Origin: a virus
Lineage: Duplodnaviria > Heunggongvirae > Uroviricota > Caudoviricetes
Length of the DNA: 11,159 nucleotides
Reading direction: 5' to 3' (one strand)
IMG/VR virus record: IMGVR_UViG_2541047866_000002
Shown piece after piece: positions 95 through 2,860 of this stretch. The notes under the pieces were generated by a model, which did not search any database, had not been told where the DNA came from, and worked only from the letters and a program-made list of their open reading frames with translations. Positions within the stretch are counted from its first letter, which is position 1. Each line of letters starts with the position of its first letter. The translations under genes were made by a program, and so were the position numbers.

Positions 95-328
95 GAGTAG
101 CTTACGAAGCTTACCATCAGCGGCAACCATGTTCATATGAACACAGTTGAATTTGCTAATCTGCTTCATGAGTTTTGTTTGCTGCGTTGACCAGCTCATT
201 CCGAGGTTTTCAACGATTGGCTTCATCGCAACATATGCAACTCCGGCAGCCATGGCGGTGATAATTTGCTGACCGTTGAATGGCACGTAAGAGGTGTTCA
301 CTGCTTCTAAAATTGCTATACTATTCAT
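95..328 (-). pseudogene. ant: Antirepressor Ant-like gene (AntA/BRO-N type N-terminal domain), 3'-truncated by the IS insertion
   Basis: ATG at 328-326 opens [43 protein letters not shown]..., about 78 native codons. The reading frame runs straight into the IS terminus and its stop codon (94-92, TGA) is supplied by the IS end TGAACC. It lies downstream of an Arc-like gene as in P22 immI. The GTG at 394 of the ORF track is rejected as start. Confidence 0.6.
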
Positions 329-400
329 GTTGGTTTTTCTCCACGGATTTACCGACAACCGAAGCCCTGACTGTTCCAGCAGTTGGGGCTTCACTGTTTT
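329..400 (+). ncRNA. Candidate sar-like antisense RNA covering the ant ribosome-binding region
   Basis: Extended -10 element TGcTATACT at 314-322 on the plus strand (inside the ant 5' end, antisense). A stem-loop at 361-392 (gaagccc...gggcttc, 7-bp stem with an internal ctg/cag sub-stem) is followed by a T-rich tract at 393-410. Predicted transcript is about 70 nt, antisense to the ant leader. P22 encodes a small sar RNA in the equivalent position. Confidence 0.3.
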
Positions 401-560
401 GATTTCTTTGCCGCATCAAGCATCACTTCTGAAAACGTGCGCTTGCCACTGAATACTCTTTCTCTTCTCAATTTTTCGTTCGTGCCAAATGATTCGCCAT
501 GAACAAAATTTGGTCTTAAAATGGTAATCGCAATCTCTTTGACTACTGCATCCAAGCGAA

Positions 561-1630: not shown

Positions 1631-1662
1631 TCCTTATAAAAAACCCACCTGACGGTGGGTTT
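1631..1662. terminator. Stem-loop terminator between the convergent ClpP-like and YafO-like genes
   Basis: aaacccacc-tgac-ggtgggttt at 1641-1662 (9-bp perfect stem, 4-nt loop). On the minus strand it is followed by TTTTTATAAGGAG (plus 1631-1640), a canonical intrinsic terminator for the minus-strand cassette. On the plus strand the downstream T-tract is weak. Confidence 0.55.
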
Positions 1663-2110
1663 AGTCAAACATAGTGTTTCTAAAGTCTCTCGCATACCCT
1701 GCTAACACTCTCATTCTATTATGATTGTTAGCAGACATGTGAGCTACAGGATGAAAAAGAGCAATCAATGAATACCTGTTCTCATCAAAAAGATTTTGTG
1801 CATAAACGAGAGCGGTATTGGATGTTTTATGCCACTGCAACTTTTGCGGTGTGCTGATATCTGTGCCATTTTTTATTGGCTCAAATTTATTTTCACCAAT
1901 TGCTAAATGAAGGTGCATAAGGCCTGCATCTTCAATATCAGGAGGTCGATGATAAGAGGTGTCTCTGCCAAAATAGCTGGGCAACGTTCCCGTAGACTTG
2001 TAGATGATAAAATCATCTACAAGTGTTTGTTTTAAATCAGGAAACTCAACAAAAACCGGGGAGAAAAAATAGTCAAAACTATCCTGATTATATTCCACGG
2101 TTACTTGCAT
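1661..2110 (-). CDS. YafO-family toxin-like protein (149 aa)
   Basis: ATG at 2110-2108 with GAGGT 5 nt upstream, located inside the 3' end of the preceding gene. The product aligns by eye with E. coli YafO as I remember it: DFIIYKSTGTLPSYFGRD / DFISYKRDGVLPDTFGRD; HLHLAIGENKF / HIHLANENNPF; ALVYAQNLFDE...LIALFHPVAH / HLVYCQGAFDE...LIAILKPEPH; and a C-terminal N..M......A..FR pattern. Confidence 0.7.
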   Translation of the reverse strand: MQVTVEYNQDSFDYFFSPVFVEFPDLKQTLVDDFIIYKSTGTLPSYFGRDTSYHRPPDIEDAGLMHLHLAIGENKFEPIKNGTDISTPQKLQWHKTSNTALVYAQNLFDENRYSLIALFHPVAHMSANNHNRMRVLAGYARDFRNTMFD

Positions 2111-2118
2111 GTTTTACC

Positions 2119-2685
2119 TCAGTGGAAGTTACCAGAGTGAAACACACGAGTCCCGTGCTCAGCAAGCGCACGCAAACCAGCCATATCTACGGAACTATCA
2201 AAAACAACCGGAACACATGAGCGTTGTTTAATAAGACTATTCAGGTTGGTTACGGCAGATCTGGCATCAGCAACAACGATATAGATATCTCTTGCGATCT
2301 CTTTAAAATCAGCAGAAGCTTCTTTGAATACCGATTTCATTGCCCCTTCAAGTCCTCTCAATTGATGCTCTATCAATCGAGACTTTTCTGGTTCAATGAT
2401 AGACAACACATTGTCTACATTCTCATCGGTAGCGTTTGCAAGAACACGATAAGCGTATTTCAGCATTCGAGACAATTCTTTAATCGAAGACACCGCCTCA
2501 TGAAGCTCATCATTAGCCCGTTCACTGCTGAATGAGGATTGATGGTAAGCGTGCTGAACGTTATCAGTAACAACCACCTCACAACTGAACGCAGAAGCTT
2601 GCTGTAATAGCAAACCTATTGCGACTCCAGCTTTGGCAGCGTTCAAGCTAAACATTTCATCAATCCCATTAGTCTCATTGCTCAT
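2119..2685 (-). CDS. Hypothetical protein (188 aa), upstream partner of the YafO-like gene (antitoxin position)
   Basis: ATG at 2685-2683 preceded by AAGGAGG with a 5-nt spacer. Its stop TGA at 2121-2119 lies 8 nt before the YafO-like start. No motif I recognise (no obvious RHH/HTH). The longer ORF start at 2715 is rejected because it lacks an RBS. Confidence 0.6.
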   Translation of the reverse strand: MSNETNGIDEMFSLNAAKAGVAIGLLLQQASAFSCEVVVTDNVQHAYHQSSFSSERANDELHEAVSSIKELSRMLKYAYRVLANATDENVDNVLSIIEPEKSRLIEHQLRGLEGAMKSVFKEASADFKEIARDIYIVVADARSAVTNLNSLIKQRSCVPVVFDSSVDMAGLRALAEHGTRVFHSGNFH

Positions 2686-2860
2686 ACAAACCTCCTTCTT
2701 ATCGGAGATTATCAATAGCTATGCATCCATTGAATACACGCTATGCGCAATAAGTTTACGTCACGTGATATCATTATGCAACCACCGTTCTATCACCGAC
2801 TAACTTTACTCCCACTCCTATACATCATCTGGTATCCTGCGCAAAACTAAGGAGGTTGGT
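2686..2860. promoter_or_regulatory. Divergent intergenic region between the 188-aa gene and the membrane-protein gene, with candidate promoter and palindrome
   Basis: On the minus strand TTGCAT (plus 2776-2781), a 17-nt spacer and TAAACT form a plausible sigma70-like promoter for the cassette. The spacer contains the 8-bp palindrome TCACGTGA (2761-2768). Promoter for the plus-strand gene not confidently placed. Confidence 0.35.

Follow-up and report, generated by a model that had tools for sequence, protein, structure and literature searches.

In phage P22, the antisense RNA sar limits antirepressor synthesis by repressing translation of ant (PMC12197685, PMC7968456, PMC2629481). Reviews of the primary work describe it as a 68/69-nt RNA that represses ant translation (PMC12197685), and small-RNA sequencing during P22 infection has recovered reads at the sar locus. 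The statements on the P22 mechanism made here are drawn from reviews and from the genome paper on phage epsilon34; the primary work, as cited in PMC2629481, is that of Liao et al. 1987, Wu et al. 1987 and Schaefer & McClure 1997. The c4 antisense RNA of phages P1 and P7 likewise represses ant synthesis, pairing around the ribosome-binding site (PMC12197685). Among database records, the P22 RefSeq entry annotates the sar promoter, the sar RNA (70 nt) and the sar terminator, and in the epsilon34 record promoter and RNA are marked.

The DNA analyzed here, referred to as the window, is a stretch of 11,159 nucleotides from a Caudoviricetes record of IMG/VR (IMGVR_UViG_2541047866_000002). An earlier note, made from the sequence alone, had proposed that it encodes a sar-like RNA of roughly 70 nt complementary to the ant leader and ribosome-binding site. 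The follow-up analysis bears this proposal out with a full-length match to the Rfam sar family and 95-97% identity to the P22 and epsilon34 counterparts. Specifically, the segment from 329 to about 400 on the plus strand is very probably (probability about 0.93) the sar gene of a P22-like (Lederbergvirus) E. coli prophage, encoding a cis-encoded antisense RNA of about 70 nt. The window sar adds one more copy, in a familiar setting, to a curated RNA family and is in this sense already known; its local peculiarities are limited to an extra open reading frame (ORF) upstream of the target, a U-richer terminator tail and an ant gene disrupted by an insertion sequence (IS). As a textbook antisense regulator it matters little beyond annotation, and marking it is useful where records omit it: at the sar site, neither Escherichia phage phiv205-1 nor the one RefSeq sister E. 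coli prophage checked (SCU-116) carries an ncRNA annotation.

Family match, promoter and fold of the sar locus

The Rfam covariance model for sar (RF00262) matches positions 329-395 (+) with 83.9 bits (E 6.7e-17; gathering score 43), and the match covers model positions 1-68 of 68. It is the sole above-threshold Rfam match in the whole window, in which the same scan found no match to c4. With the P22 misc_RNA 'sar' also aligned from 329, the antisense RNA is placed at 329-400 (+), with a length of about 68-72 nt, and we infer from the sequence that its 3' end lies in the U run at 397-400. The RNA is antisense to the ant leader: G329 abuts the ant start codon (ATG, 328-326), and the ant Shine-Dalgarno sequence, GGAG at 342-339 and 10 nt before the ATG, lies inside the sar target. 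The surroundings are those of an immunity I (immI) region, with Arc-family and P22_AR_N domains, P22-type virion genes downstream and best matches in Lederbergvirus.

The predicted promoter, Psar (294-322, +), consists of the weak -35-like hexamer GTGTTC (294-299) and, with a spacer of 17 nt, the extended -10 TGcTATACT (314-322; TGCTATACT). The earlier note had located this -10 within the first ant codons, where it indeed occupies codons 3-5 (Ser-Ile-Ala) on the opposite strand. Each base of 294-322 has its counterpart in the sar promoter annotated in P22 (P22 locus 905-933) and in the promoter of epsilon34, which the epsilon34 record labels 'located by similarity with P22 Psar'. Relative to P22 there is one difference, in the -35-like hexamer (GTGTTC versus GTGTTA), and the -10 is identical. 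A transcription start near 329-331 had been predicted, and G329, which directly follows the ant start codon (CAT on the plus strand, 326-328), is the counterpart of the annotated P22 sar +1. Psar went undetected in a generic two-hexamer sigma-70 promoter scan, whose rule excludes a -35 as poor as GTGTTC; the promoter was judged by alignment to the annotated P22 promoter, and the generic scan was set aside. Because the -10 9-mer has at least one match in 34 of 200 shuffles (17%) and is not rarer than chance alone, the significance of sar rests on the Rfam score and on conservation, and not on this motif.

When folded, as the earlier note had recommended, the segment 329-400 (+) forms two hairpins at -32.4 kcal/mol (z = -5.8; 0 of 200 shuffles as good), and this minimum-free-energy fold agrees with the Rfam consensus structure of sar. 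Stem-loop I (329-356, +) has a 6-bp outer stem (329-334 with 351-356), which is found in the minimum-free-energy fold and shows compensatory changes in relatives, and in its loop lies the anti-Shine-Dalgarno CUCC (339-342), complementary to the ant GGAG. Stem-loop II (361-392, +), with 14 bp and the 4-nt loop UCCA, is recognized as an intrinsic terminator by the terminator scan, the fold and the P22 sar terminator annotation. It is followed by ACTGTTTTGATTTCTTTG, and the 3' tail at 393-409 reads ACUGUUUUGAUUUCUUU. A hairpin at 361-392 with a T-rich tract had been anticipated and is present, but the accompanying estimate that it lies about 60 nt beyond the start was not quite right, as the hairpin begins 32 nt past +1 and is complete at nt 64.

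Folding of the minus strand of the same region yields -22.4 kcal/mol (z = -2.5). The plus strand thus folds 10 kcal/mol better than the mRNA strand, with G.U pairs making the difference, and this G.U-based advantage points to selection on the antisense RNA itself. A U-rich tail follows hairpin II on the plus strand only; since the minus strand has no U run after the hairpin, the message that runs through arc, the intervening ORF and ant should read through it.

Conservation among related loci and alternative readings

The locus was compared with 12 phage loci (epsilon34, 611R6, CUS-3, S.Kent 1-2-1, Kapi1, PhiR12_1, EC.P3, Emek, ES2, SEN22, GF-2 and phiv205-1) and with two further loci, from a Klebsiella aerogenes prophage and a metagenome contig, for a total of 14 other loci. 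A sar match lies at the same place and on the same strand in 14 of 14, and it scores above the gathering score in 12. The sar-like matches of SEN22 and GF-2 reach 32 bits each, below the gathering score. These two are divergent sar-like RNAs in the same position and with the same -10 (GF-2 locus 423-482, SEN22 locus 440-506), and the first hairpin of GF-2 is shorter and differently positioned. In CUS-3, an annotated 'boundary sequence' starts just inside sar.

The earlier note had made its proposal depend in part on whether the -10 element is conserved in related immI regions. Each of the 14 other loci has the element. With the window added, this makes 15 of 15 loci, 11 of them with the exact sequence and 4 with one or two changes, and in every one the extended -10 ends 7 nt ahead of +1. 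It is kept also in phages with an unrelated ant N-terminus or upstream gene. Ant residues 3-5 (Ser/Thr-Ile/Leu-Ala) are conserved among the loci, apparently because the -10 sits in those codons.

Both hairpins are kept in all 14 related loci. Stem I was compared by per-sequence folds anchored at +1; the MAFFT alignment misaligned this stem, and RNAalifold run on it predicted hairpin II alone. In the anchored folds, pairs 4 and 5 of stem I show compensatory exchanges among G-C, A-U and U-A, and Kapi1 folds into the same stem I as PhiR12. Hairpin II has two pairs with compensatory changes among the related loci.

A core that spans the -10 through the hairpin is 71-97% identical among the loci. 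Where the Ant N-terminus (MKSIAT..., MKSIAK..., MSSLAK...) or the upstream gene is of another kind, identity drops to 50-62% in the 60 nt to either side of this core. The cassette of Psar and sar forms an island of identity across at least four unrelated Ant N-terminal types and several different upstream genes. Within the 'ant moron' of P22-like phages, such an island is consistent with a portable regulatory module or with a recombination boundary.

The same region could be read without any antisense RNA, if the hairpins acted in the arc-ant mRNA on the minus strand, for example in processing or stability, and the -10 were a by-product of the ant codons. Watson-Crick covariation in a perfect antisense pair cannot tell which strand is selected, and the minus strand, too, folds better than its shuffles (z = -2.5). 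Several observations nevertheless leave this reading very improbable. On the minus strand, the G.U pairs of the two stems turn into A.C mismatches, at a cost of 10 kcal/mol, the U-rich tail follows the hairpin on the plus strand only, and the -10 is kept where the remainder of the Ant N-terminus is unrelated. In P22, moreover, sar has been reported as a 68/69-nt repressor of ant, with small-RNA reads at its locus. The probability is smaller still, and practically negligible, that an unrelated hairpin terminator happens to stand beside a fortuitous -10. Although the -10 9-mer is not statistically rare by itself, an Rfam E-value of 6.7e-17 over the full model, 95% identity to P22 sar and a syntenic position kept in 15 of 15 loci including the window all speak against chance, and a chance resemblance is refuted by the Rfam match, the P22 alignment and the sar match at related loci.

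Neighboring genes and the interrupted ant target

The left end of the window is an immunity I region, and further to the right lie P22-type ejection, tail-needle and head-completion genes. The arc gene (561-713, -) encodes an Arc-family ribbon-helix-helix repressor (PF03869, 5.1e-12), is annotated as Arc in phiv205-1 and is predicted to be the first gene of a transcript that continues through a 57-codon ORF (orf57) into ant. Upstream of it, the promoter scan called a Pant-like promoter (750-778, -; TTGACT, 17 nt, TATCTT preceded by TG), which is a consensus match only and whose position matches that of the annotated P22 Pant; this candidate would produce the target mRNA of sar. Divergent from arc lies an mnt-like repressor gene (828-1076, +) with Pfam Arc and FitA-like RHH domains, in the position of P22 mnt.

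Two further features of the region were recorded. At the mnt stop, in the place that orf59a takes in P22, begins a Clp-protease-like gene (1076-1612, +; PF00574, 178 aa), named 'head maturation protease' in phiv205-1 and ClpP subunit in RefSeq. Beyond it, positions 1661-2110 (-) and 2119-2715 (-) hold a YafO-family type II toxin gene (RefSeq; phrog_1651) and an ORF of unknown function (phrog_8416), the YafO-family gene lying directly downstream of the 188-198-aa phrog_8416 ORF. These two genes may constitute a toxin-antitoxin-like pair inside the ant moron.

The long gap between arc and ant that the earlier note mentioned measures 232 bp as described (arc stop at 561-563 to the ant ATG at 328), but most of it is not leader, as it holds the putative gene orf57 (391-564, -; phrog_17642, unknown function, 1.3e-43). 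The true untranslated ant leader is 62 bp (329-390), similar to the 68 bp of P22. The GTG start of orf57 overlaps the arc stop as GTGA, with a Shine-Dalgarno-like GAGGGGG 7 nt upstream, and the ORF ends with a stop codon that reaches into the base of the sar terminator. Both phiv205-1 and RefSeq E. coli entries list the ORF as hypothetical, and the order of arc, ORF and ant recurs in Klebsiella aerogenes and in the metagenome contig. The relatives found are close ones only, with 78-98% identity over most of the length. Within this close range, the copies in the window and in Klebsiella aerogenes differ by 3 synonymous and 8 non-synonymous codons, and in the metagenome copy 45 nt are duplicated in frame. 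The corresponding place in other P22-like phages is taken by unrelated ORFs of 73 or 89 codons.

The target gene itself is incomplete. What remains of ant (92-328, -) begins with the start codon at 328-326 and encodes 78 codons of P22_AR_N (PF10547, 2.9e-18; PHROG 'anti-repressor Ant'), with a stop at 94-92 that was created at the junction with an IS3-family insertion sequence. The end of this element occupies positions 1-92 and cuts ant after codon 78; these positions match thousands of IS3-family copies in E. coli genomes, and phiv205-1 and intact prophages are homologous to the window from 93 onward. None of the complete E. coli genomes searched has an IS junction at exactly 92/93. In 8 complete E. 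coli genomes, the same IS family is found within ant at other positions.

As a consequence of this insertion, sar is left without most of its cis target, and repression of Ant synthesis cannot be its present selective function in this genome. This raises the question whether sar is here a relic, a sequence still intact whose role was lost when the IS3-family insertion destroyed ant in a decaying prophage, a reading for which the odds are about even. Consistent with it are the end of ant after 78 codons at the IS junction and the sister genomes that carry the same IS family elsewhere in ant, beside a truncated tail-fibre gene. On the other hand, positions 93-1200 are 98.8% identical to phiv205-1 and positions 290-570 are 100% identical to it, as they also are to many prophages with full-length ant. 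Given this near-identity, the disruption looks recent, and no decay is visible in sar. The relic reading concerns present use, not identity, and is compatible with the identification as sar. A further idea, which we regard as improbable, is that sar survives as a purely trans-acting RNA that dampens the antirepressor of superinfecting P22-like phages carrying the sar target cassette, or that it modulates the 3' end of the 57-codon ORF, with which its tail overlaps. If true, a trans-acting sar would represent a small RNA-based remnant of immunity.

Proposed mechanism and comparison with known systems

The arrangement suggests a mechanism of the P22 type. Transcription from Pant may activate Psar, but the mechanism proposed here makes no use of this. 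From the extended -10 promoter in ant codons 3-5, transcription would begin at G329, convergent to Pant, and the transcript would end at the intrinsic terminator hairpin 361-392. The resulting sar RNA would be fully complementary to the ant leader made from Pant and would cover the ant Shine-Dalgarno sequence. Contact would be made by the CUCC of loop I, which would meet the ant ribosome-binding site, and the duplex would block ribosome binding, leading to less antirepressor, as in P22. For the window sar, the computational analysis shows membership of the sequence family, the anatomy, the complementarity to the ant leader, the fold, conservation and covariation, and we infer transcription, pairing kinetics and translational repression from P22.

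Among the known systems, c4 of P1 and P7 has no sequence family in common with sar. Unlike sar, it is released by processing of the transcript that also carries its target, and it is not known to be transcribed convergently. Escherichia phage phiv205-1 (MN340231) is identical to the window throughout 290-570, including the extra ORF, and its sar is unannotated. Prophages of many E. coli genomes, for instance S88 and APEC O1, match this segment at 100% identity too. In contrast to the cut ant of the window, phiv205-1 has a full-length ant of 300 codons. The core of epsilon34 (NC_011976), annotated as 'small antisense regulatory RNA', is 97% identical to that of the window; its arc directly adjoins sar, like that of P22 and unlike that of the window.

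P22 itself differs from the window in a small number of respects. Its homology ends at 393, beyond which the window tail is U-richer (ACUGUUUUGAUUUCUUU versus AACUUUACGCG in P22). The target is preceded by the 57-codon ORF in the window and by arc in P22, and ant is interrupted by the IS in the window, compared with 300 codons in P22. Four substitutions fall within 329-392 and break no pair: position 344 lies in loop I, positions 376 and 378 lie in loop II, and the change at 353 turns a G.U of stem I into G-C, strengthening the stem. Over the stretch that runs from the -10 through the hairpin, the two sequences are 95% identical. Taken together, P22 sar has the same promoter position in the first ant codons, the same TGCTATACT, the same start after the ant ATG, the same two stem-loops with CUCC in loop I, the same terminator hairpin and the same setting of mnt, arc and ant.
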